From positions 3,660 through 67,659 of the forward strand of contig CAMBFX010000001.1 of NCBI GenBank assembly GCA_945865695.1: a stretch of 64,000 nucleotides of DNA. Direction: 5' to 3'. This stretch comes from Chryseobacterium gleum (GTDB taxonomy: Bacteria > Bacteroidota > Bacteroidia > Flavobacteriales_D > UBA2798). The notes beneath the pieces were generated by a model, which made no database searches, was not told the DNA's origin, and worked only from the letters and a program-made list of their open reading frames with translations. Both the position numbers and the translations under genes were made by a program. This document shows, one piece after another, positions 23,411 through 39,021 of this stretch. Within the stretch, counting starts at the first letter, position 1; each line of letters begins with the position of its first letter.

Positions 23411-25198
23411 TTAATCAACGTTATCGTGTAAGAATGAATTATTTGATTTCAAACCCGTTGTTTTGTTTCCGTTTTCATCGGTTTCTTCGCTTACTGTATA
23501 TTTTGATACAGTAGATTCAGATGAATGCGGTGTGTTCAACAAACTTACATTTCTTCTCTTGTAAGCTGGTTCATTTTCTAAATCAGCTAAACCCGATGGA
23601 GTTTTCAATTTATTGCTCAACTCTTTAATTTTAGAGAAACGATCGGATGATCTTTTTTGTTGTTCCTCCGTTGAAAGATGAGAAATATTTTCTTCTGAAT
23701 CAGATTCAGAAGTTGAGTTTTCAATAGTTGAATTCGATTTTTTCTCTTCTTCTAATGAATCATCCAACCAGTAATATTTCTTTTTCTCTTCTGTTTTCAC
23801 AGTCTCTACTTTCGGAACTTCAGCTATTGGAGTTGGAGTAACAGGCGTAGAATTAATTGGAGTTTCAACTTTTGAAACACTTTCAATACTTGGTGTTACT
23901 GTTTGTTCAACCAACGGTGTAGAAGAAATAGTTTCTTTCCATTCTGATTTCACTTCGGCAACCGGTTCAGCTGTTTTCATGAACGGTTCTTCAGAAGCCG
24001 TTTTGATTTCGAATTCAATGGTTGCTTGTGTTTTTATTTCTGATTTCAAAACAGGCGCTTCCGTTTTCCAAGTTGTTTCTTCCTTCTTCAAATATGGCTC
24101 TTCAGTTTTCGCCAAAATATTTTCGGTTGGAGATGAGATTTGATTTGCCACAGGCTTCTCTTCAACAAGAGTTACATATTTTTTTTCTGGCTCTGAAGTG
24201 GTCAATGAAGAATTTACACTTCCAGATTTGAATCCAGTTGCAATGATAGTGATATGTACTTTTTCTCCCAATGCTTCATCGATACCATAACCAATTTTTA
24301 CGTCGGCCGTATTTCCTGTTGCCTCTTGAATCAAGTCGGTGATTTCTCCAAACTCATCCATTGACAATTCAGTTTTTCCAGAGGTGATATCTAGTAAAAC
24401 AAATCTTGCTCCGCGAATATCATTATCATTCAATAAGGGTGAATTTAATGCATGCTCTATAGCTTTTAATGCACGGTTATCTCCTTCAGCAGTTCCAGAA
24501 CCCATCAACGCAACACCACTACTTTTCATCGCAGTGTTCACGTCATTGAAGTCAACGTTCATATGCTTCGTTAATGAAATTAATTCAGCAATACTTTTTG
24601 CTGCACTTGTTAAAACATTATCGGCTTTACCAAAAGCTTCACCTATCCCTAAATTTCCGTAAATCTCTCTCAATTTATCATTGGTGATTATTAATAAGCA
24701 ATCTACATTTCTCTTTAATTCTTCCAAACCTTCTTCAGCTTGTGCACGTTTTCTTTTTCCTTCAAACATAAATGGAATAGTAACGATTCCTACGGTGAGG
24801 ATTCCCATTTCTTTACATGTTTGAGCTATGATTGGAGCAGCACCAGTTCCAGTTCCTCCACCCATTCCTGCAGTGATAAAAACCATTTTGGTATTTGCAC
24901 CAAGCATATCGCGAATCGCATCGATACTTTCGATAGCAGAATTTCTTCCCATTTCTGGAATAGAGCCTGCTCCGAGACCTTGCGTAAGCGAAGTTCCTAA
25001 TTGAACTTTCAATGGCACTGGAGAAATATCCAATGCTTGTTTGTCGGTATTACATACAATGAAATCTACGCCTGTGATTCCTTGTCTGTACATGTGGTTA
25101 ACGGCATTACTGCCTCCGCCACCTACACCGATCACCTTGATGATAGATGTTTGCTCCTTTGGGAGATCGAATTTGATGAAGTTGGTTTCCATGTTCAT
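23411..25198 (-). CDS. ftsZ: Cell division GTPase FtsZ with a long disordered linker
   Basis: [10 protein letters not shown], the tubulin signature [10 protein letters not shown], and a conserved C-terminal peptide SFLHDNVD. Confidence 0.97.
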
Positions 25199-25311: not shown

Positions 25312-26592
25312 CTATTTTATATCTTCGTCTTCAAAGAAACTTTTGGTGCCTCCGAGAATTTTCTCGAAGAAAGATCCTCTGCTTTTTTTAGAGTGAGTTT
25401 TTGCTGATTTGTGATTTTCACTTCGCATTTGTTTTTCATATTTCTCAAATCCTTTGATCACGAGTCCAACACCTGTTGCATACAATGGACTAGCACATTC
25501 ATCAGCACCTTTAGAAAGATGTTCATTAGGGTATCCAACACGAGCATCCATTCCAGTGATGTATTCGAATAATTGAGAAATATGTTTTAATTGAGAACCA
25601 CCACCCGTGATTACAATTCCACCAATGAGTTTTTTCTCATAGCCAGAATTTTTTATTTCGTAATAAACGTGTTCGATGATTTCTTCCATTCTCGCTTGAA
25701 TGATACTGGCTAAATTACGAATAGAAATTTCTTTCGGTTCTCTTCCTCGTAAACCTGGAATACAAACGATTTCGTTTTCTTGACTTTCACTTGCCAATGC
25801 AGAACCAAATTTCACTTTCAATAATTCGGCTTGTTTACCAATGATAGTGCAACCCTCCTTAATATCATCGGTAATAATATTTCCACCGAATGGAATAACC
25901 GCAGTATGACGAATAATTCCGTCTTGAAAAATAGCGATATCGGTTGTACCACCACCAATATCTACTAAAACTACTCCAGCTTCTTTTTCTTCCTCACTCA
26001 GAACAGCATCAGCCGAAGCCAACGGTTCTAGAGTAAGTTGATCTACTTCGAGACCCGCTTGAGCCACGCATTTATGAATATTTTTTGCAGCAGCAATTTG
26101 TCCAGTGATAATATGGAAATTCGCTTCGAGACGAATTCCCGACATACCAATCGGATTTTTTATTCCTTGTTCATAATCTACAATATATTCTTGCGGAAGA
26201 ACATGAATGATTTCTTCACCTGGAAGCATCACCAATTTATACATATCTTCAATGAGCATATCGATATCAATTTGCGTCATTTCTTCTTCTATGGAATTTC
26301 GTGTTCTGATTCCACGGTGTTGAAGACTTTTGATGTGCTGTCCAGCAATACCTACATTTACAATTCGTATTTCTACTCCTGATTTGCGTTCTGCTTCGTC
26401 AACAGCTGCGCGAATAGATTCTACGGTTCGTTTAATGTTTGAAACCACTCCACGAGTTACGCCAAGTGATTCTGCTTTTCCCACACCAAGAATTTCAATC
26501 TTGCCATGTTCATTTTTTCTTCCAACTAAGCAGGCGATCTTGGTGGTACCAATATCCAAGCCTACGATGATTTCTGATTCGTTTGATTCCAT
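25312..26592 (-). CDS. ftsA: Cell division protein FtsA
   Basis: Actin-fold motifs (VGLDIGTTKI, DIGGGTTD, VITGGGSQL). Start placed at MESNESE (ATG 26590-26592), which removes the 16-nt overlap with ftsQ. Confidence 0.95.
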   Translation of the reverse strand: MESNESEIIVGLDIGTTKIACLVGRKNEHGKIEILGVGKAESLGVTRGVVSNIKRTVESIRAAVDEAERKSGVEIRIVNVGIAGQHIKSLQHRGIRTRNSIEEEMTQIDIDMLIEDMYKLVMLPGEEIIHVLPQEYIVDYEQGIKNPIGMSGIRLEANFHIITGQIAAAKNIHKCVAQAGLEVDQLTLEPLASADAVLSEEEKEAGVVLVDIGGGTTDIAIFQDGIIRHTAVIPFGGNIITDDIKEGCTIIGKQAELLKVKFGSALASESQENEIVCIPGLRGREPKEISIRNLASIIQARMEEIIEHVYYEIKNSGYEKKLIGGIVITGGGSQLKHISQLFEYITGMDARVGYPNEHLSKGADECASPLYATGVGLVIKGFEKYEKQMRSENHKSAKTHSKKSRGSFFEKILGGTKSFFEDEDIK

Positions 26593-26597
26593 AGGGT

Positions 26598-27383
26598 TTA
26601 TTTTTTTGTGCAAATTATCTGATGTTTGAATTTTACGTTTATAGTGTCGTATTTTTCCCAGTCGGTGTTATTAAGACCTTCTTTATAAAATACGAGAAGT
26701 TTATTAAATTTTCCTTCCATATTATCGAGATTTCCGAACATCACTCGATGATCGCCAACTGTTGGAATTAATTCGAATTCTGCCGAAGAATTTACATGCA
26801 CTTGTTGTATTTGCGCTGACCAAAACTCATCGTCTTTAATAAATTTCGCTAATCTAAAAATTTCATCTGCCATATACATTTTATCTAGTTCGGGAGATAA
26901 GTCCAACTCACGTGCACTTAAATTGGTTGCGGGATCATTTATATTGCCTGTGAAAACTAAAACACGCGGAGAATATTTTTCGGATACTGGCATTTGAAAA
27001 CCTTCTTCATCCAAATAGAAATTTCTGCCTGACTGATTAAATACCCTTGCCATAGGAATTCGTTGATATATTTTAATACCTACTTCACCGTTCATAGATT
27101 TATAAACTTCTGCCAATTTTATTTCTGGAATTTTTCTAAGTGTTGTTTCAATTTCCTCGAGATTCACTTCACTCATCGTAGCTCCAACTGGATTTAAGCC
27201 GTCTACACGTAATGCAGAAATAATATCATCTTCATTAATAAAATGCATTCCTGTTTCTGTATCTACATTTATTATCAATTTCGAACAAATTTTAGTATTT
27301 TGTTTTGATTGCGAAAACGACAACATCACAATAGTTCCGATGAAGAAACCTACCCAAAGCAATATGTTAATTCTCTTTTTCAT
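26598..27383 (-). CDS. ftsQ: Cell division protein FtsQ (single TM helix plus POTRA-like domain)
   Basis: N-terminal TM helix. Position between murC and ftsA. Size 261 aa. Confidence 0.75.
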   Translation of the reverse strand: MKKRINILLWVGFFIGTIVMLSFSQSKQNTKICSKLIINVDTETGMHFINEDDIISALRVDGLNPVGATMSEVNLEEIETTLRKIPEIKLAEVYKSMNGEVGIKIYQRIPMARVFNQSGRNFYLDEEGFQMPVSEKYSPRVLVFTGNINDPATNLSARELDLSPELDKMYMADEIFRLAKFIKDDEFWSAQIQQVHVNSSAEFELIPTVGDHRVMFGNLDNMEGKFNKLLVFYKEGLNNTDWEKYDTINVKFKHQIICTKK

Positions 27384-28732: not shown

Positions 28733-29829
28733 TTTACTGTTTCTTTTATTACGGCAACTATTGCTTGAGTAGAATTATTAAATCCTAATGAAGCGATATT
28801 ATTTCTCAACTTATTTTGTTCCTCTTGATTAGTAAAAAGCATTTTCATGGTTTCACCTAATTTTTCTTTAGCATCCAAATCCTTCACCAAAATAGCCGCA
28901 TGATGATTGACCAATGCCATTGCATTTTTTGTTTGATGATCTTCGGCCACATTCGGAGATGGAATCAAAATGCAAGGTTTTTTTACCAAACATAATTCCG
29001 AAACTGAAATAGCTCCTGCTCGTGAAACCACCACATCGGCAACTGCATAAGCCAAATCCATTCTAGCGATAAAATCAAAAACTTTCACATTGCTAAATGT
29101 TGATGCAGATTGTTTCGCTCTTTCAAAAAATCCTTTTCCGGTTTGCCAAATTACTTGAATATTATTTTCTTTCAATAATGGTAAATTCAATTCTATCGCT
29201 TCGTTGATTGTTCTTGCGCCTAAACTTCCTCCGATAATCAATAAAGTAGATGCAGAAGTATTCATTCCAAAATGCTCAATACCTCTTTCTCTTTTACCTT
29301 CTAATTTCACTATTTCTTCTCTTACTGGATTTCCTGTGAGAACAATTTTCTCCTTTGGAAACCATTTTTCCAATCCTTCATAAGCGACACAAATTTTTCT
29401 CACTTTCTTAGAGAGAATTTTATTGGTAATGCCAGGATAAGAATTTTGTTCTTGAATAATGGTAGGAATTCCTTTTCCGGCAGCTGCTCGCAACATAGGG
29501 CCACTAGCAAAACCGCCTACACCAATCACCGCATCTGGCTTAAATTGTCTTAATATTTTTCTTGCTCTCAACAAACTTGAAATCACTTTAAATGGAAATG
29601 ATAAATTTTTTATTGTCAATTTTCTTTGCAAACCACTAATCCATAATCCTTCAATTTTATAACCTGCAGCAGGAACTTTCTCCATTTCCATTTTACCAAT
29701 TGCTCCAACAAATAATATTTCAATTTTAGGATCTTGTTTTTTCAATTCATTGGCAATGGCAATAGCCGGAAAAATATGTCCACCTGTTCCGCCTCCACTG
29801 ATAATAACTTTACGCAACGGCATACTCAC
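28729..29829 (-). CDS. murG: Undecaprenyldiphospho-muramoylpentapeptide beta-N-acetylglucosaminyltransferase
   Basis: ISGGGTGGHIFPAIAIA N-terminus and GGSLGA. dcw context. Confidence 0.95.
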   Translation of the reverse strand: MSMPLRKVIISGGGTGGHIFPAIAIANELKKQDPKIEILFVGAIGKMEMEKVPAAGYKIEGLWISGLQRKLTIKNLSFPFKVISSLLRARKILRQFKPDAVIGVGGFASGPMLRAAAGKGIPTIIQEQNSYPGITNKILSKKVRKICVAYEGLEKWFPKEKIVLTGNPVREEIVKLEGKRERGIEHFGMNTSASTLLIIGGSLGARTINEAIELNLPLLKENNIQVIWQTGKGFFERAKQSASTFSNVKVFDFIARMDLAYAVADVVVSRAGAISVSELCLVKKPCILIPSPNVAEDHQTKNAMALVNHHAAILVKDLDAKEKLGETMKMLFTNQEEQNKLRNNIASLGFNNSTQAIVAVIKETVK

Positions 29830-31003
29830 CCTCCTTTACTTTATTTCCTTCTTCATTATTTTCTGTTGTTACTTCTTCATCTTGATAAACACTTCTACTT
29901 ACCGATAAAATAATTCCTATTGATAAACAAGTAAACCAAGTTGATGTTCCACCCATACTGATGAGAGGCATATTTTGTCCTGTTACTGGAAGTAATTTTG
30001 TGCAAACCGCCATATTTACTATGGCTTGTAATAATAAATTCAAGGCTAGACCCATGACGAGAAAGGAGCCAAAATTTTTCTCGCATTTAATAGCAATTCG
30101 TATGGCTCGATAAAAGAAAATTAAAAACAATAGCACTAACAATACAGCTCCTGGCAAACCGAATTCTTCCACAAAAGAAGCAAAAACGAAATCTGCGTAT
30201 GCTTGTGAAAGTGCGTGTTTCAGTTGTCCGTTTCCTGGTCCAGTACCAAAAAATTTACCATTATAAATGGCCATTTCTGCATTATTAATCTGCCATTGCT
30301 CCTTTGGATCTTCACTGGCGTGATTAGAAAAACGATTCATCCATGTATCTAATCGCGGAAGTAAATCAGGATTTATTTTTGCAAGCGCAATCAATAATAA
30401 AAATCCAACTACAGCCGAACCAACAATAATTCCTATTTGTCTCCAAGGAACTTGTCCGATGAAAAACATAATCAATACTAATAAAAATGTTAAAGCAGCG
30501 GTAGAAAAATTCGCAGGTAAAATCAATGCGCAAATTAATCCAACGGGAATTAATATCGGTAACATTCCTTCTTTGAAATCATCCAGTTTCTCTCGATTTA
30601 TTACTAGCATTCTTGCTATAAACATGATCATAATAATTTTTGCAAAATCTGAAGTTTGAAATTGCAAGTTGATGAACGGAATTTTTAACCAACGATCGGC
30701 TGAATTTACACTCACACCTGCCACGAGAGTTAAAAATAAAAGTCCTACTGCTACCCAAATAAATAATTGAGAAATTCGAGAGTAGTAAGTATATTTTAAA
30801 TTATGCGCGTAGAACATTAAGAAAAACCCTGTTCCTAATGCAAACACGTGTTTTAATAAAAAGGATTCGGTATCGGTTCCTTTATGTTGATAAGTTAGAA
30901 TAGGAGTAAAACTATACACCGAAATCAATGACAATAATGCCAAAATCAGTGTAATCATCCAGATCACCTTATCACCTTTGAGATATGTAAAAACTGATTT
31001 CAA
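29810..31003 (-). CDS. ftsW: SEDS-family lipid II flippase/peptidoglycan polymerase FtsW
   Basis: Ten-TM-like profile with the FtsW/RodA C-terminal motif LPVTGQNMPLISMGGTS. Confidence 0.9.
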   Translation of the reverse strand: MKSVFTYLKGDKVIWMITLILALLSLISVYSFTPILTYQHKGTDTESFLLKHVFALGTGFFLMFYAHNLKYTYYSRISQLFIWVAVGLLFLTLVAGVSVNSADRWLKIPFINLQFQTSDFAKIIMIMFIARMLVINREKLDDFKEGMLPILIPVGLICALILPANFSTAALTFLLVLIMFFIGQVPWRQIGIIVGSAVVGFLLLIALAKINPDLLPRLDTWMNRFSNHASEDPKEQWQINNAEMAIYNGKFFGTGPGNGQLKHALSQAYADFVFASFVEEFGLPGAVLLVLLFLIFFYRAIRIAIKCEKNFGSFLVMGLALNLLLQAIVNMAVCTKLLPVTGQNMPLISMGGTSTWFTCLSIGIILSVSRSVYQDEEVTTENNEEGNKVKEGEYAVA

Positions 31004-31021
31004 TTTATACTTTTAAATAAA

Positions 31022-31528
31022 TTATTTTAAATCATTTACTAATTTTCGATAATGCTCACCACGTTCTTGAAAATCATTGTAACTGTCAAAACTGCTACAA
31101 GCTGGAGAAAACAAAACTACCGTGCCTGATTTTGCTTTTGATACTGTAAAATCCAACGCTTCCTTTAACGATTCCTTTTTAATATAACAATCAACTAAGC
31201 AGGAATACATATCGAAGAGCGAAGAATCATTTGATTTTCCGAATACGATTAAATTAACCACTTTGTCTTTTACGAATTTTAAAACATGCGAATAATCCGT
31301 TTCCAAATTAGTTGCACCCACTATCCAAGTTATTGGTGAATTGATTAACTCGAGAGAATAATAAGTTGATTCGATATCCGTAGATTTTGAATCATTAATA
31401 AATTCTACTCCGTTCCAATTGCGAACCGTTTCCATTCGATGTTCGATACCAGCAAATAATTGCAAACTTGCAGTACGTGCATTTAAATAATGATTACTTG
31501 CTGTTTTTATTCCGCTTTTAGATCTCAT
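31022..31528 (-). CDS. Stand-alone paralog of the MurD C-terminal (Mur ligase C) domain
   Basis: Aligns by eye with MurD residues from about 275 to the end. Example pairs: [96 protein letters not shown]. Roughly 40 percent identity. Start placed at MRSKSG (ATG 31526-31528), 7 nt after the murD stop. Confidence 0.6.
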   Translation of the reverse strand: [168 protein letters not shown]

Positions 31529-31535
31529 AACAAAA

Positions 31536-32873
31536 TTAAAGTGCTTTAACTGCTTTTTTAAATTGTGCTCCTCTGTCCTCGAAATTTTCAAATAAATCAA
31601 AACTTGCACAGGCTGGAGATAATAAAACTACTTGATCTTTTTTCGCCAGGCGATAAGCTTGAGCTACTGCTTCTGTTGCACTAGAAACTTCGACAATTTC
31701 TCCTACCATTCCTGAAAAAGTCTTTTTCAATTTTTCATTGTCTTTTCCTAAGCAAATGATTGCCGTAACTTTTTGTTTAACCATTTCGAAAAGGGTTGAA
31801 TAATCATTTCCTTTATCTACTCCGCCAACAATCCATACGATTGGTTTTTCCATACTTTCTAATGCATACCATGTAGAATTTACATTGGTAGCTTTTGAAT
31901 CATTGATAAATTCAATGTCGTGAATTTTTGCAACGAATTCGAGACGATGTTCTACATTTTGGAAATCAGAAAGACTTTCTCTGATAACTTCTTTGCGAAT
32001 GTCGAGCAATCGGGCAGCGATGCCGGACGCCATTGAATTGTAAGCATTGTGCTTACCTTGGAGGGCTAAGTTGTGAATTGACATGGTTAGGGTTTGGTTT
32101 TTTATGGTGATGTTGATTGTTTCGTTTTTCATAAATGCACCTTCTTTCACTTCTTCTTTAATAGAAAAAGGAAATTTAGTTGCAGAAATATTTCTACTAA
32201 GGATTTCTTTCATGGTCACTTCATCATCGATGCAATAAATTAATGCGTCTGAAGAAATTTGGTTTTGTGTAATGCGAAATTTTGATGCCGCATAATTTTC
32301 TAATTTATATTCGTAGCGATCTAAATGATCTGGAGTAATATTGACAAGAATAGCAATGTCGGCTTTGAAATCATACATGTGATCTAATTGGAAACTGCTT
32401 AATTCTAAAACATAATGATCAAAATTATTTTCGGCTACTTGCAATGCAAAACTTTTTCCAACGTTGCCACCTAATCCAACATTGAATCCTGCATTTTTTA
32501 GAATATGATAAGTTAAAAGTGTTGTTGTTGTTTTTCCATTGCTTCCTGTAATACAAATCATTTTTGCCTTGGTAAAACGACCGGCAAATTCAATATCAGA
32601 AATCACGGGAATATTTTTATCGATTAATTTTTTTATTAGATCAACTGTTGATGGAATTCCTGGACTCTTGATCACTTCTTTTGCGTTTAGGATATTCTCT
32701 TCGTGATGCCCACCCTCTTCGAATGGAATATTCTTTTCGATTAAAGTATTTTTAAATTTCTCTTTAATCTTTCCACCGTCAGACACGAACACGTCATATC
32801 CTTTCAGTGAAGCTAAAATGGCTGCACCTACTCCGCTCTCTGCGGCACCTAATATGACAATTCTATCTTTCAA
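31536..32873 (-). CDS. murD: UDP-N-acetylmuramoylalanine--D-glutamate ligase
   Basis: Rossmann N-terminus ILGAAESGVGAA, P-loop GSNGKTTT, and a full-length C-domain. Confidence 0.95.
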   Translation of the reverse strand: MKDRIVILGAAESGVGAAILASLKGYDVFVSDGGKIKEKFKNTLIEKNIPFEEGGHHEENILNAKEVIKSPGIPSTVDLIKKLIDKNIPVISDIEFAGRFTKAKMICITGSNGKTTTTLLTYHILKNAGFNVGLGGNVGKSFALQVAENNFDHYVLELSSFQLDHMYDFKADIAILVNITPDHLDRYEYKLENYAASKFRITQNQISSDALIYCIDDEVTMKEILSRNISATKFPFSIKEEVKEGAFMKNETINITIKNQTLTMSIHNLALQGKHNAYNSMASGIAARLLDIRKEVIRESLSDFQNVEHRLEFVAKIHDIEFINDSKATNVNSTWYALESMEKPIVWIVGGVDKGNDYSTLFEMVKQKVTAIICLGKDNEKLKKTFSGMVGEIVEVSSATEAVAQAYRLAKKDQVVLLSPACASFDLFENFEDRGAQFKKAVKAL

Positions 32874-32876
32874 TTT

Positions 32877-34121
32877 CTATCTCAATTTCAATGTTACAAT
32901 AGACAAAATGGCGAGCATCACAGCAACAATCCAAAAACGCGCAACGATTTTAGATTCATGCATTCCTTTTTTCTGATAATGATGATGTAAGGGAGACATG
33001 AGAAAAATTCTTCTTCCTTCTCCGAATTTTTTCTTCGTGTATTTAAAATAACTCACTTGCATAATCACTGATAAATTCTCAATAAGAAAAACTCCACAAA
33101 AAATTGGAATTAATAATTCCTTACGAATCGCAATAGAGAAAACTGCAATGATTCCGCCTAATGCTAAACTTCCTGTATCACCCATGAAAACTTGTGCGGG
33201 ATAAGAATTATACCATAAGAAACCAATACATGCACCAATGAACGCACTGATGAAAACAACAAGCTCACCCGATTCAGGGATATACATCACATTGAGATAA
33301 TCGGCAAAAACCAAATTACCCGAGATGTATGCAAAAACGGCTAAGGCAACCCCAATAATTGCTGAAGTTCCAGTGGCGAGACCATCGAGACCATCGGTAA
33401 TGTTGGCTCCGTTGGAAACAGCAGTAATAATTAAAATAACAATTGGAATAAAAATAATCCATGCCCAACTCGCATTTTCCTCTCCTAAAATCCAGGAATA
33501 ATTGAATTCATTATTTTTTATAAATGGAATAGTTGTTTTTAAAGAAGTAGTTTCATCCCAATAATATTTTCCATCATCACAAATTGCCGACTCATCTGTT
33601 TCGACTAATTTTTCATAGTTCATCTCTGGGTTAATCGGAACTTTCTCTTTAATTTTTACATCTTCATGAAAATATAAAACTGAGCCTACAATAATTCCTA
33701 ACCCGATTTGTCCAATCACTTTGAATTTTCCTGCTAATCCTTTTTTATTTTTCTTAAATACTTTTATGTAATCATCAATAAAACCAATTGCTCCTAACCA
33801 AATGGTAGAAATAATCATTAGGATGATATAAATATTTTGAAGCTTTGCGAATAATAAAGTGGGAATTAAAATAGCCGCGAGAATAATGAGTCCTCCCATT
33901 GTAGGAGTTCCTTGCTTTTGAATTTGTCCGTCTAATCCTAAATCACGAACCGTTTCTCCTACTTGTTTATACCGTAAATAATCAATTAATCTTTTTCCAA
34001 AAAGCATAGAAATGATTAATGAAACAATCACCGCCATTGCTGCACGGAAAGAAATATATTGGAAAACTCCCGCTCCGGGAAAATTCACACTGTCTAAATA
34101 GTCAAAAAGATAATACAACAT
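32877..34121 (-). CDS. mraY: Phospho-N-acetylmuramoyl-pentapeptide transferase
   Basis: [22 protein letters not shown], and the HHHYQ motif region. Confidence 0.95.
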
Positions 34122-35584
34122 TATTTATCGTTATTTTTTAATGATTGTTCTATTTCTTCCATATCATCGAAAGGAAATTTCTCTCCTTTTATTTCTTGGT
34201 ATTTTTCATGACCTTTTCCTGCAATCAAAATAATATCACCGGGGCGAGCCATCATACATGCTACTTTAATTGCTTCTTTGCGATTTACCAATGACATTAC
34301 TTTACGAATCGTATTTCCTTCTACTCCCTTTTGCATTTCAGTAATTATTTTTTCAGGATCTTCACTTCTTGGATTATCGGAAGTAAGAATAACTTTATCG
34401 CTTTTTTCGCACGCAATTCCTGCCATCAACGGTCGCTTGGCTTTATCTCTATCTCCACCGCAACCCACCACTGTAATCACTTGCTCGTTGCCCGTTCTGA
34501 TATCTTGAATAGTTGATAAAACATTCTTCAATGCATCAGGGGTGTGCGCATAATCTACAATGGCAATAATTCCTGTTGCTGATTTTATATATTGAAATCT
34601 TCCTTCTACAGAACCTAAACTACTTATTGCAGTAAGCACATTCAAATCTTCTTGTCCTAATAAAATAGCCGTTGCATAAGCTGCCATGATATTATAAGCA
34701 TTGAATCCACCAATGAGTTTTGTCCAAATTTCTTTTCCGTCTATATTTAATTGCAAACCTGTAAATTGATTTTCTATCACTTTACATTTGAAATCCGACA
34801 TGGCTTTAATTCCGTAGGTATGAATTTTTGCTTTTGTAGAAGTAATCATTTCATCACTGTGGTAATCGTCTTTATTTAATAATGCAAAAGCATCTGAATC
34901 CAATGCATCAAAAAATCCTTTTTTCGCTTTGAGATATTCATCAAACGTTATATGATAATCTAAATGATCGTGAGAAATATTGGTAAAAACAGCTCCAGTG
35001 AATTTTATTCCCGAAATTCTTTTTTGATGAACTGCATGAGAACTTACTTCCATAAAACAGTAGGTACAACCTTTATCCACCGCATCTCTCAAGAGCGAAT
35101 TTAATTTTACCGGATCAGGAGTAGTATGAGTTGAAGGAATTTCATCGTTATGAATTTTATTTACAACGGTAGAAAATAAGGCTGTTTTAAAACCCAATTT
35201 TTTGAAAAGATGATATAATAAAGTAACAGTGGTAGTTTTTCCATTGGTGCCAGTTACTCCCACTAATTTTATTTCTTCAGAAGGATTATCGTAAAAATTA
35301 GAAGCGATTATTCCGAGTGCAGCTGCAGAATCGTTTACTGCGATATAAGAAACTTTGGGATTTTTAACGGTAGGCATTTCTTCGCAGATAATAGCAACAC
35401 CTCCTTGTAAAATGGCTTTATCTATAAAAGCATGTCCATCTGTTTGCGTTCCCTTTACAGCCACGAATAAGGATAGATTGCGCACTGCACGAGAATCGGC
35501 AGTGATACTTTCTATAGCGATATTCGTAGAACCATCTACTTCAACGATGCGCACACCATATAATATGTCTTTTAATAATTTCAT
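34121..35584 (-). CDS. murE: UDP-N-acetylmuramoyl-tripeptide synthetase MurE
   Basis: [20 protein letters not shown] and the DNPRSEDP motif. Confidence 0.95.
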
Positions 35585-37704
35585 CCTTTTAATTCGATGG
35601 TTATTTTTTGTCCGCTTTGTATTTCACTTCCTGCATTCAATGATTGCTTAATTACTTTTCCACTTCCTCGGACCACTACTTTCAATCCTTTATTTTCTAA
35701 AACATAAAGTGCATCTTTTAATCCCATTCCTTTTACATCAGGTATTTTTCCACCCACAATTTTCTTTTCTGAAAGCAAAACTTTTCCATCTTTACTCTGA
35801 CTTGATGCCCATTCATATCCATAATTGAAAGTGGCATTTCTCACTCCTAAATCGCCAAGCACAAGTAGAATTTCATTAGCGTTTCCATTTTTTACATTAG
35901 GAACCGATTTTTCTGCCATCAATTTTTTCTCATTTATTTTTTCATGAATCTGTAAATTGTAGGAAAAAATTTTATCGGCTATTTCTTTAAATACAGAACC
36001 TGAAACCGCATTTCCATAATAACCCTCGCGTACATCTGGTTCCATAATAGAAACGATACAAGAATATTTAGGATTATCTGCAGGGAAATAACCAACGAAT
36101 GATGCGAGGTATTTTTTTCCTTGGTAAGTTCCTCCAGTATAAATTTGTGCTGTACCCGTTTTTCCTGCAATCTTAAAATTGGCTGCTTTCAAATTTGAAG
36201 CAGTTCCATATTCTACTACATCTTCGAGTGCTGATTGAATTAATTTTAATGTGCTAGCTTTACAAATAGAATGATTCAACACAACTGGTTCGAATTTCTG
36301 AAGAACATTTCCCTTACGTTTTATTTCTTTTACGAAAAGAGGTTTTACCATTTTTCCATTATTGGCAATGGCATTATAAAAAGCAAGAATTTGCAACGGT
36401 GTCATTTTTACCTCATATCCTATAGACATTTGTGGCAATGAAACTCCTGACCAATCATCTCCTGTTGGATCTTTCACCAATGGTTTTGCTTCACCTTGAA
36501 GATCTACACCCAACGGCAAATGCAATCCAATTTTTTTAATTCCTGCTACAAATTTTTCAGCTTGACTTTTGTAAGCATTAAAAAGTGGACGCGATACTCC
36601 TATATTAGAAGAAAAAACTAAGGCATCATGAACAGAAATTGTTCCATGTGCTTTAGAGTCTGTCATGGTTAAATCATAATATTTAAGTTTTCCAGTGCCT
36701 GTTTTTACACTGTCGGACATCTTAACCATTCCTTGATCTAATGCTACCATTAATGAAGCTGTTTTCATTGTAGAACCTGGTTCGGTTGCAACACCTAAAG
36801 CATTATTGAAATATTCATAATAAGCACTATCACTTTCTCTAGAAAGATTGGCAATGGCTTTTACATAACCCGTTTCTACCTCCATTAAAACTACACATCC
36901 ACTTGTGGCATTGTATTTTTTTAATTGATTGAGCAATGCATTTTCTGCGACATTTTGTAAGCGTATATCAATAGTAGAAAACACATCTGCTCCATCTTCG
37001 GGAGTAACATCATATTTATCCGAAACTGCTTTCCATCTTCCTCCTGTTTTGCGCATCAATTGTTTTCCGTCAACGCCATTCAATAAAGAAGAAAATGCAC
37101 CTTCAATTCCAACACGAGTGATGAATTGAGGATGATCGGGATCTTGACGTTCGTATCCAATGGTACGTGCTGCTAAAATTCCAAACGGACGGATACGTTT
37201 ACTGATTGGATCTACAATCATTCCGCCAACGTTAGAACCATTTCTATAAAGAGGGAAAGATTTTAATTCCTTTAATTGGTTATAACTAACTTTTCTTGCG
37301 ATTAATAAATAACGATTCCCTTTTTCACCTTTATTACGTTCATTAATTAACCATTCTTTATATTCATCTTTTGTTTTGCCGCGAAACATTTTGGATAATC
37401 GAAGAGAAAGTGAATCAATATTTTCATTAAATAACTCATCAGTTAACCCATCTGCTCCTAAATCCATATGAATATCGTAAACGGTATTAGAAGTAGCCAA
37501 CAAACTTCCATTATCAGAATATACATTTCCTTTTTTCGAAGGAATGGTTCTCATTTCTGTTTTTAGTTGTGCTGCTTGTTCTTCCCATTCTTTAATATCT
37601 GTCATTTGAATCTTAACTACACGAATTAAAACCAATAGACAAATGATTCCCAAAATGAAATACACTGTATAAACTCTCCACGCTATGTCTTTTTTATCTT
37701 CCAA
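35581..37704 (-). CDS. ftsI: Class B penicillin-binding protein FtsI/PBP3 with a C-terminal PASTA domain
   Basis: N-terminal TM helix. SxxK (GSTMK), SSN and KTGT motifs. C-terminal IPDVKGMGLKDALYVLENKGLKV...GQKITIEL is PASTA-like. Confidence 0.9.
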   Translation of the reverse strand: MEDKKDIAWRVYTVYFILGIICLLVLIRVVKIQMTDIKEWEEQAAQLKTEMRTIPSKKGNVYSDNGSLLATSNTVYDIHMDLGADGLTDELFNENIDSLSLRLSKMFRGKTKDEYKEWLINERNKGEKGNRYLLIARKVSYNQLKELKSFPLYRNGSNVGGMIVDPISKRIRPFGILAARTIGYERQDPDHPQFITRVGIEGAFSSLLNGVDGKQLMRKTGGRWKAVSDKYDVTPEDGADVFSTIDIRLQNVAENALLNQLKKYNATSGCVVLMEVETGYVKAIANLSRESDSAYYEYFNNALGVATEPGSTMKTASLMVALDQGMVKMSDSVKTGTGKLKYYDLTMTDSKAHGTISVHDALVFSSNIGVSRPLFNAYKSQAEKFVAGIKKIGLHLPLGVDLQGEAKPLVKDPTGDDWSGVSLPQMSIGYEVKMTPLQILAFYNAIANNGKMVKPLFVKEIKRKGNVLQKFEPVVLNHSICKASTLKLIQSALEDVVEYGTASNLKAANFKIAGKTGTAQIYTGGTYQGKKYLASFVGYFPADNPKYSCIVSIMEPDVREGYYGNAVSGSVFKEIADKIFSYNLQIHEKINEKKLMAEKSVPNVKNGNANEILLVLGDLGVRNATFNYGYEWASSQSKDGKVLLSEKKIVGGKIPDVKGMGLKDALYVLENKGLKVVVRGSGKVIKQSLNAGSEIQSGQKITIELKG

Positions 37705-37705
37705 T

Positions 37706-38110
37706 TCAATATAAATTATTCAATGTTTCATTTGGCACAGCTATAATATTAGGCGCTTCATCTCTTGCTTCTACTAAACCAATTTTTGCCGTTGAATCTG
37801 CCACTTGTGATTGTCCACTCACCACATTGTATTCAGTTTTTACTGCTATTTCCTCTGTACGTAAATCCAGATTCTCTTCTTCTAATGCGTTTATCAATCT
37901 TGTATTTTTATCAATATTGTATCCCATTCCTATATACACCAACATCAAAGCCGTGATGAAAACGATGAAAGGAAGATTTTGAATCACATAATCTTTCGTC
38001 AATACATTTCCATTCAATACATCCATAAAAGAGCGAGCTACCTTATTGGGTTTTCTCACTTTCTTGGTTTTAACCTTCTCTTCTTTTTTCTCTTTAAACT
38101 TGTTACTCAT
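37706..38110 (-). CDS. FtsL-like small membrane protein
   Basis: Basic N-terminus, one TM helix and a short coiled segment. Occupies the ftsL slot between rsmH and ftsI. Called by position only. Confidence 0.55.
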   Translation of the reverse strand: MSNKFKEKKEEKVKTKKVRKPNKVARSFMDVLNGNVLTKDYVIQNLPFIVFITALMLVYIGMGYNIDKNTRLINALEEENLDLRTEEIAVKTEYNVVSGQSQVADSTAKIGLVEARDEAPNIIAVPNETLNNLY

Positions 38111-39021
38111 TTCTTTTCTGCTATTCTCAATTTTGCACTTCTTGCTCTTGGATTTTGTTCTATTTCTTCTGCTGTGGGCACCATTGGTTTTTTTGTAATC
38201 AATTCGAAAGGTGTGATCGGGTTTCCATAAAAATCTTTTTCTACTTCACCTTCCATTTTTCCTGTTCGCATAAAATTTTTCACCAAACGGTCTTCCAGAG
38301 AGTGATAAGAAATCACCACAAGTCGTCCGCCGGGTTGTAAAAAATCTAAAGATTGTTTTAGGAAATCTTCGAGTACATCCAATTCACCGTTCACTTCAAT
38401 TCGAATCGCTTGGAAAACTTGTGCGAGAAATTGTTTTTCGTTTTTCTTCGGAATCATTTTCGAAAGTGCATCTACTAAATCGCGAGTGGTATTGATACTC
38501 GCAACTGTTCTTGCCTTCACAATCATTTTCGCCACATTGGTTCCGTGTTGAAGTTCACCGTAGGTTTTGAAAATGTATTTTAATTTTTCTTCAGAGTAAT
38601 CATTAATCACATCGATGGCTGAGAGTTCTTGATTTTTATTCATTCTCATATCGAGAAAAGCGTCATTGCGAATAGAAAATCCGCGAGAAGCATCATCGAA
38701 CTGATGAGAAGAAACACCCAAGTCCGCGAGAATTCCGTTTACTTGATTCGCACCGTAAAATCTTAGATAATTACTGAGGTAGCAGAAGTTTTGCGGAACA
38801 AAAACAAAATTCTCATTGGAGGGAACATTGTTTTTCGCATCGGGATCTTGATCAAAACCAAAAAGTTTACCAGTGGTAAGTTGTTTTAGAATTTCACGAG
38901 AATGACCGCCTCCGCCAAAGGTGACGTCTACATAATTTCCGGTGGGTTGAATTTCCAGGCCGTTGACAGCAGCATGTAAAAGAACAGGTGTGTGATAGGC
39001 ACTACTCGACATGGTCCTCAT
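38107..39021 (-). CDS. rsmH: 16S rRNA (cytosine1402-N4)-methyltransferase
   Basis: YHTPVLL, DVTFGGGGHS and the SYHSLEDR motif. The true start may be the Met 3 codons in. Confidence 0.95.
   Translation of the reverse strand: MRTMSSSAYHTPVLLHAAVNGLEIQPTGNYVDVTFGGGGHSREILKQLTTGKLFGFDQDPDAKNNVPSNENFVFVPQNFCYLSNYLRFYGANQVNGILADLGVSSHQFDDASRGFSIRNDAFLDMRMNKNQELSAIDVINDYSEEKLKYIFKTYGELQHGTNVAKMIVKARTVASINTTRDLVDALSKMIPKKNEKQFLAQVFQAIRIEVNGELDVLEDFLKQSLDFLQPGGRLVVISYHSLEDRLVKNFMRTGKMEGEVEKDFYGNPITPFELITKKPMVPTAEEIEQNPRARSAKLRIAEKK

Follow-up and report, generated by a model that had tools for sequence, protein, structure and literature searches.

The DNA analysed here, hereafter the window, is a stretch of 64,000 nucleotides (nt) from the Chryseobacterium gleum assembly GCA_945865695.1 (contig CAMBFX010000001.1). 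Its minus strand carries a division and cell wall (dcw) cluster of the Bacteroidota type, recognised from the list of open reading frames (ORFs) and, for murD and ftsW, from Pfam matches; the other dcw genes were named by their order and by the Pfam domains of their counterparts at related loci. The dcw cluster is among the most conserved and most studied of bacterial gene clusters, and a conserved extra member is unusual. Between the full-length murD and ftsW of the window an additional ORF was found, encoding a stand-alone version of the third, C-terminal domain of MurD (168 amino acids, aa), which we named mini-MurD-C, in short mini (Table 1). A previous inspection of the bare DNA letters, referred to below as the sequence-only reading, had described an extra gene of 168 codons starting 7 nt after the murD stop and preceding ftsW, and the coordinates bear this out, with ftsW following after 18 nt.

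The mini gene ends in a TAA stop codon, and the spacers at its two sides are too short to hold a promoter or a terminator of its own. Translation likely starts at the ATG at 31528, because every relative begins at a conserved M(R/K/Q)xK... methionine. A GTG at 31609, opening an ORF of 195 aa, was rejected as a start, since the resulting ORF would run into murD and conservation of the N-terminus sets in only at the ATG. An Rfam scan of positions 1-64000 returned no family at gathering score, that is no rRNA, riboswitch or other curated RNA family.

Residues 21-167 of mini align with residues 300-445 of the adjacent MurD at 42% identity (BLASTP, E = 7e-37), in keeping with the roughly 40 percent estimated in the sequence-only reading, and the EHR motif singled out there is present, together with an ERG motif. 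The profile check proposed with that estimate was positive: Mur_ligase_C (PF02875) scored 31.2 bits, above the gathering cut-off of 28.4, the match spanning profile positions 1-127 of 127 and mini residues 30-144. The adjacent MurD carries MurD_N, Mur_ligase_M and Mur_ligase_C, whereas mini carries Mur_ligase_C only. Indeed, no Pfam match to MurD_N, MurD-like_N or Mur_ligase_M was obtained with mini, and no GKT (P-loop) motif occurs within its 168 aa, in agreement with the claim that the protein lacks the N-terminal UDP-binding domain and the P-loop and is no ligase. With TIGR01087, the NCBIfam equivalog model of MurD, mini scored 139 bits, below the cut-off of 211.95, and the match was limited to profile positions 293-440 of 441, while the adjacent MurD scored 399 bits; no NCBIfam model is dedicated to mini.

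Profile-profile alignment (hhalign) placed mini residues 13-168 on MurD residues 288-445, with a 13-residue stretch of mini facing RLLDIRKEVIRESLSDF in MurD and the N-terminus of mini being the equivalent of MurD residue ~276-288. The collinearity first asserted holds across the C-terminal domain, while the pairing of ten residues at the end of the central domain was not recovered. This placement locates the start of mini within the inter-domain helix rather than at the central-domain HNxxN motif (HNAYNSMAS). At the nucleotide level, similarity between mini and murD persists at two short motifs only.

An AlphaFold2 (AF2) model of mini, built from the family alignment, reached a predicted local distance difference test score (pLDDT) of 85.5 and a predicted template modelling score (pTM) of 0.80. 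After ten disordered residues (1-10) it shows a long helix (residues 10-26) and a core of alternating beta strands and alpha helices. In a Foldseek search of the PDB, the best 33 matches were all MurD (E down to 9e-12, TM-score 0.72-0.78), followed by MurE, MurF and MurC; mini is thus predicted to have the Rossmann-like alpha/beta fold of Mur ligase domain 3. The N-terminal ~20 residues bear a net charge of +3 to +4 in 12/12 genomes compared. For the domain itself, net charge and isoelectric point showed no consistent difference from MurD domain 3, only the N-terminal tail being consistently basic.

Table 1. Features of mini-MurD-C and of the surrounding dcw cluster in the window (mini residues are numbered from the ATG at 31528).
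Feature	Coordinates	Strand	Basis
mini-MurD-C gene, 168 aa plus stop, ATG at 31528	31022-31528	-	ORF, BLASTP, PF02875, AF2, orthologues
Basic, predicted-disordered N-terminal tail, residues 1-10	31498-31528	-	pLDDT < 50
E29-H30-R31 = E. coli MurD H301-R302	31436-31444	-	Profile alignment to PDB MurD; invariant in core family
I44-NDSKS-T50 = MurD I315-N316-D317-S318-K319-A320-T321	31379-31399	-	D, S, K and T common to both groups
G71-ATNLETD-Y79, rebuilt loop	31292-31318	-	Leu75 at Lys348 position; E. coli MurD alignment, motif table
S141-PACSSF-D148 = MurD SPACASLD (S146 = S415, F147 = L416)	31085-31108	-	Alignment, site classes
R156-G157 = MurD R425-G426	31058-31063	-	Alignment, site classes
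Spacer from murD stop to mini start, 7 nt	31529-31535	-	Sequence; murD and mini in different frames
Spacer from mini stop to ftsW start, 18 nt	31004-31021	-	Sequence
murD, full-length, 445 aa, own domain 3 intact	31536-32873	-	Pfam MurD_N, Mur_ligase_M, Mur_ligase_C; TIGR01087; motifs
ftsW, 397 aa, always the next gene downstream	29810-31003	-	Pfam FTSW_RODA_SPOVE, E = 1e-68; synteny
304-aa ORF, taken as mraW	38107-39021	-	Position only
ftsI	35581-37704	-	Gene order
murE	34121-35584	-	Gene order
mraY	32877-34121	-	Gene order
murG, murC, ftsQ	after ftsW	-	Gene order
ORF at ftsA position	25312-26613	-	Gene order
ORF at ftsZ position	23411-25198	-	Gene order

The profile of the mini family is collinear with E. 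coli MurD residues 291-436, and the residues kept or lost were identified by a column comparison of ~52 small proteins with 64 full-length MurDs. Common to both groups (E. coli MurD numbering) are H301, R302, E304, N316, D317, S318, K319, T321, the SP of the SPAC motif, R425 and G426, and the equivalents of S415 and F422 are also kept in mini. Residues of this set line the inter-domain cleft in MurD, where, in the crystal structures, the nucleotide is contacted by R302, D317 and K319 and the amino acid by T321 and S415. Kept in full-length MurDs only is the GGxDKGN loop (G345, D346, K348, G349, N350), which in the small proteins is rebuilt family-wide to the consensus G[AST]x[ED]xE[TN]D. Lys348 is present in almost all the full-length MurDs and absent from every stand-alone protein of 162-190 aa, where differing residues take its place (L, I, M, F, V, S and others). 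Further switches specific to the small proteins are N322 to D, A329 to S and L409 to F. In MurD, one carboxylate of a ligand of the D-glutamate (D-Glu) type is hydrogen-bonded by Lys348 and Thr321 and the other by Ser415 and Phe422 (PMC3527612). Mini therefore retains most of the cleft face of domain 3 and has lost a key part of the D-Glu site. The more divergent small proteins are also without HR, NDSK or SPAC residues, which is the pattern expected for a pseudoenzyme or a non-enzyme.

Lacking the ATP-binding domain, the UDP-binding domain and the Lys348 loop, mini is predicted to be unable to ligate on its own, and it probably no longer binds D-Glu as MurD does; the suggestion that it might serve as a D-Glu-binding module is weakened by the rebuilding of the loop across the whole family. 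By its profile score and its predicted fold, mini is classified as a member of the Mur_ligase_C family; for its low TIGR01087 score and the lack of the N-terminal domain, of the P-loop domain and of Lys348, it is not classified as a MurD.

The retained nucleotide-contacting residues would also suit a protein that acts catalytically in trans, joining the N-terminal and central domains of MurD or of another Mur ligase devoid of domain 3; the rebuilt loop, which is more acidic, would then present a modified D-Glu or an amino acid other than D-Glu. In line with this, the loop is not randomised but rebuilt in a family-specific manner, as are the N322 to D and A329 to S switches. The adjacent MurD is however complete and canonical, no partner devoid of domain 3 was seen at any locus, and the residue at the Lys348 position varies, whereas a new specificity pocket would fix it. 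In addition, D-Glu is the near-universal residue at position 2 of the peptidoglycan stem peptide, and we consider catalysis in trans very improbable. A small-molecule sensor or buffer, binding nucleotide, D-Glu or UDP-MurNAc-peptide with no stable protein partner, would account for the conservation of a pocket face on an otherwise solvent-exposed domain. This too appears improbable, given that the D-Glu lysine is lost and that the ligands of MurD are mainly held by domains 1-2, domain 3 giving only a part of each site.

A search of 5.8 billion proteins retrieved 24 homologues that stand alone, are 163-190 aa long and share between 96% and 45% identity with mini, and an exhaustive hidden Markov model (HMM) search of 1.8 billion cluster representatives placed at the top of the ranking at least 16 clusters (50% identity level) of 163-186 aa. 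Lower in the HMM list, more small proteins were interspersed with full-length MurDs and with MurD fragments at contig ends. Many MurD-like matches of 180-300 aa turned out to be such contig-end fragments of true MurD, in which G.DKGNDY and HNxYN are kept, and were left out of the family.

Wherever flanking DNA was available, the gene order was full-length murD, mini, ftsW. This arrangement was found in three metagenome lineages (47-75% identity, including a 4.38-Mb chromosome), in nine GTDB species representatives labelled Parvicellaceae, Cryomorphaceae or Flavobacteriales bacterium (the closest, at 93% identity, being a metagenome-assembled genome, MAG, of Lake Mendota type, L006), as well as in two closer relatives and in the two most divergent clade members checked. 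The orthologous ORF which the sequence-only reading had proposed to look for in the murD-ftsW gap of Flavobacteriales relatives was thus intact and syntenic in all those examined. We propose as a new family, type A (~168 aa), the proteins of 162-186 aa consisting of domain 3 only, devoid of Lys348 and encoded between a full-length murD and ftsW; mini is one of them, and others were found at the loci L001-L014, L086, L087, L102 and L103. In the Bacteroidales genome L015, covered by the same scan, murD is directly followed by ftsW.

The distance between murD and mini ranges among the relatives from 7 to 206 nt; on these grounds, and for the difference in frame, a fusion of mini with MurD by readthrough or frameshifting was rejected. 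The distance between mini and ftsW spans -13 to +82 nt; most values lie within -13 to +5 nt, 2-5 nt being usual, and a 4-nt overlap is recorded at L090 and for the 171-aa relative P0026. Mini and ftsW are separate genes in all the relatives, although overlapping by 4-13 nt in some.

Three other irregularities were observed in the dcw clusters of the relatives. A 108-aa gene matching the Pfam family 23S_rRNA_IVP (four-helix bundle) lies between mraY and murD at L103:2712-3038, in a lineage which also has mini. At L102:7305-8697, murC appears as two ORFs overlapping by ~40 nt, of 299 aa (Mur_ligase, Mur_ligase_M) and 177 aa (Mur_ligase_C), probably due to a frameshift error rather than to a real split, as the record name ends in '5x', which we read as low coverage. 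Finally, in the Parvicellaceae MAG L007 (5602-6523) murG is present as two ORFs of 188 and 135 aa, probably because of an assembly frameshift.

At a GC content of 34%, the probability that 168 codons stay open is ~4e-5 to 3e-6, and 0/200,000 shuffles of the mini gene remained open. Together with the intact orthologues, this substantiates the earlier argument that the open frame speaks for retention. The ratio of non-synonymous to synonymous substitution rates (dN/dS), which had also been proposed as a test, was estimated by the Nei-Gojobori method on five related genomes and was well below 1 for mini (0.06-0.18, at dS 0.4-1.6); in the same genomes it was 0.015-0.065 for the MurD C-domain and 0.015-0.046 for ftsW. 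Selection on mini is clearly purifying and weaker than on the neighbouring genes. In the closest pair, formed by the window gene (31022-31528) and L006:3863-4369, 14 non-synonymous and 8 synonymous differences were counted, with 93% aa identity. Between the same two genomes, the proteins encoded by the flanking murD, ftsW, murG and mraY share 98-99% identity and their genes have dN/dS of 0.01-0.07, and the high dN/dS of mini in this pair (0.46) reflects either a local acceleration of amino acid change or small-sample noise.

A tandem-duplication origin, and a dN/dS above that of the neighbours and as high as 0.46 in the closest pair, could be taken to indicate a functionless leftover of duplication, a spacer ORF preserving the transcription or translation signals of ftsW, or even an assembly artefact. 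This explanation is effectively refuted, and we assign to it a next to negligible probability: the frame is intact and the length held at 162-186 aa down to ~45% identity in dozens of independent assemblies, no frameshifted copies were seen in close relatives, specific residues are invariant and the model folds confidently, besides the dN/dS values and the shuffling result given above. Judged on these data, mini is a real, selected gene and not a remnant, and we are highly confident that it codes for a functional non-catalytic protein.

Concerning its origin, neighbour-joining (NJ) trees with 200 bootstraps were built for ten genomes carrying both genes. The small proteins were monophyletic in 200/200 bootstraps and the C-domains of the host MurDs in 167/200, and the subclades of the small proteins match those of the host MurDs. 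Monophyly, matching subclades and the DNA similarity left at two motifs only together indicate a single old partial tandem duplication, involving the 3' third of murD, followed by vertical co-inheritance with murD and ftsW. On this evidence the duplication is placed in the ancestor of a subgroup of Flavobacteriales, with the adjacent murD as its parent gene. The labelled carriers are MAGs of Parvicellaceae type, of Cryomorphaceae type and freshwater ones named 'Flavobacteriales bacterium'.

The HMM search also identified a second group of domain-3-only proteins, of 182 aa (P0075, P0082, P0094, P0095 and P0125; loci L088-L101 and L104), in a Bacteroidota-like lineage different from that of mini. 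P0075 and P0125, and probably the other three, are encoded in the murD slot itself. The 182-aa proteins start ~25-35 residues earlier than mini, at a degenerate HNxxN strand and helix, and are likewise without Lys348. For P0075, the cluster is complete in 10 independent assemblies and reads mraZ, mraW, ftsL, ftsI, murE, mraY, 182-aa gene, ftsW, murG, murC, ftsQ, ftsA, ftsZ, and no full-length murD was found within it. The 182-aa gene (at L092:10001-10549, for instance, and at L104:2951-3499) follows mraY at 1-2 nt and ftsW comes next; P0125, belonging to a different 50%-identity cluster, is also encoded directly after mraY. A domain-3-only gene thus exists beside ftsW without an adjacent murD. 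In a plain NJ tree, P0075 and P0095 branch among full-length Bacteroidota MurDs, a placement without bootstrap support, and the 182-aa type may represent an independent truncation. A joint deep phylogeny of the 168-aa type, the 182-aa type and the full-length MurDs was dropped, its support being too low to call a shared origin.

Two further observations concern short MurD tails. The P0027/P0210 cluster, recorded on ~220 contigs of up to 380 kb, comprises a 208-aa MurD C-terminal protein in which Lys348 is kept (GVDKGNDY) and the HNxxN region is degenerate; it may constitute a third type of stand-alone protein, or else derive from a split murD of which it is the C-terminal half. In the MurD of the window, Met264 is invariant in 11/11 aligned Flavobacteriales MurDs and not universal in other MurDs. 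It lies within TMSIxDLALQGKHN, the segment where the 182-aa proteins begin (M-T-L-E-S-L-A-L-Q-G...), a correspondence at the level of segments. The idea was raised that an internal start at Met264 of murD may yield a domain-3 isoform.

As mini is not a ligase and is nevertheless kept by selection across a group of Flavobacteriales, it probably serves cell-wall synthesis or division as an accessory protein not described so far. In its full form, the interpretation we propose is that the mini gene is functional and that its product, a paralogue of MurD domain 3 with a single domain and no catalytic activity, is a pseudo-ligase module acting as an accessory subunit on a dcw partner, and we hold the chances of this to be about even. 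Mini would share a transcript with murD and ftsW, in many cases with its translation coupled to that of ftsW, and the protein would dock on its partner via the conserved cleft face, possibly aided by the basic N-terminal tail. The favoured partner would be FtsW or the FtsW-proximal machinery, with MurD domains 1-2 as the main alternative. FtsW is favoured because mini always lies directly upstream of ftsW, often overlapping it or at 2-5 nt, while the gap to murD is variable; because the 182-aa type stays beside ftsW with the rest of murD gone from the cluster; and because natural MurD-FtsW fusion proteins are documented. Such chimeras occur in Proteobacteria and Actinobacteria (Shirakawa et al. 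2023, PMC10214165), and mini might be their free-standing counterpart. That mini is specifically an FtsW-linked adaptor is a tentative proposal, to which we give less than even odds.

The alternative docking site corresponds to the proposal, already part of the sequence-only reading, that mini is a regulator or competitor of MurD. Free mini, as a trans-acting microprotein or dominant-negative, would dock on domains 1-2 of MurD loaded with ATP and UDP-N-acetylmuramoyl-L-alanine (UMA) and, being without the D-Glu-binding lysine, form an unproductive closed complex which throttles precursor flux. Consistent with this, the cleft residues H301, R302, D317, S318, K319, T321, S415 and R425-G426 are kept while the D-Glu loop is lost, and in the family of the window mini always follows a full-length murD. 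Precedent for a protein inhibitor is provided by MigC in Acinetobacter (PMC12208494). On the other hand, the tethered domain 3 of MurD itself has a large advantage in effective concentration, the 182-aa relatives persist beside ftsW without an adjacent full-length murD, and the cleft residues are also lost in the divergent members. A regulatory role on MurD is possible, but the 182-aa relatives point at least as strongly to FtsW or the dcw machinery, and we rate it as rather unlikely.

Several points weigh against the accessory-subunit interpretation, and in particular against its FtsW-linked form. The partner is inferred, and its assignment is to be taken as tentative. That mini adjoins ftsW may be no more than a legacy of how the gene arose, because the 3' end of murD always precedes ftsW, in which case it is weak evidence for an interaction with FtsW. 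The conserved residues facing nucleotide and substrate suit docking on the central domain of a Mur ligase, or small-molecule binding, at least as well. Constraint on mini is moderate, its dN/dS being 3-6x that of the neighbours and reaching 0.46 in the closest pair. The deep branches joining the 168-aa type, the 182-aa type and the full-length MurDs have bootstrap values of 0-32%. Moreover, the genome scan used two peptide patterns (NDSKSTD[IL][ED] and xFxxIxHRxx) and missed members with NDSKAT; the taxonomic range of the family is therefore underestimated, and its labels are rough.

A broader, speculative and on balance unlikely extension is that, besides catalysis, MurD domain 3 performs another job, at the SEDS polymerase FtsW or at the MraY-MurG-FtsW membrane machinery. 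If so, domain 3 could for example be a cytoplasmic regulatory subunit that ties septal glycan polymerisation to the supply of precursors or to the nucleotide state. This job would have been exposed at least twice in Bacteroidota, by duplication in the window and by truncation of the dcw copy of murD, and in the MurD-FtsW fusions of other bacteria the two partners would be joined covalently.

Whether the cytoplasmic Mur ligases are physically coupled to the membrane steps and to the divisome is debated, and the case for such coupling comes largely from gene order and from fusions such as MurE-MurF and MurD-FtsW. In this context mini gives natural access to the suspected link between Mur ligases and FtsW, as binding can be probed without catalysis interfering. 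Should mini inhibit MurD, it would represent a natural protein regulator of an antibiotic target, whose docking surface could inform inhibitor design. A practical consequence regards annotation: the only public labels on the mini family are automated ones, 'UDP-N-acetylmuramoylalanine--D-glutamate ligase', which is wrong and can mask the lack of a true murD in a cluster, as in the 182-aa lineage.

The sequence-only reading knew of no such dcw component, and the literature searched likewise yielded no account of a gene for a MurD C-domain standing alone, absence from the texts searched being no proof; a paper on dcw evolution (PMC8871954) makes no mention of one. Mini is a known domain in a new stand-alone, non-catalytic and syntenically fixed form, and an uncharacterised dcw gene. 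Compared with MurD domain 3, it shares the fold, the collinearity and the equivalents of H301, R302, D317, S318, K319, T321, S415, F422, R425 and G426, and differs in being a separate polypeptide of 168 aa without domains 1 and 2, in the replacement of GGxDKGN with its Lys348, in the N322 to D, A329 to S and L409 to F switches and in the basic, disordered tail. MurT, of the MurT-GatD lipid II amidotransferase, is likewise derived from a Mur ligase and plays a non-canonical role with a protein partner; unlike mini, it keeps the central ATPase domain and is catalytic, and as a weak Foldseek match (6H5E, 7Q8E; TM-score ~0.5) it is only remotely related. Closer to mini is the 182-aa type, equally a stand-alone domain 3 encoded immediately upstream of ftsW with Lys348 lost, which differs by its earlier start, its position directly after mraY and the lack of a full-length murD in the cluster. 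As to the MurD-FtsW chimeras (PMC10214165), they also set MurD domain 3 directly beside FtsW in the same encoded order. In the chimeras, however, a complete and presumably active MurD is fused to FtsW in a single ORF, whereas in the window a TAA stop and an 18-nt spacer separate mini from ftsW, and the non-catalytic domain is a separate ORF accompanying a full MurD.

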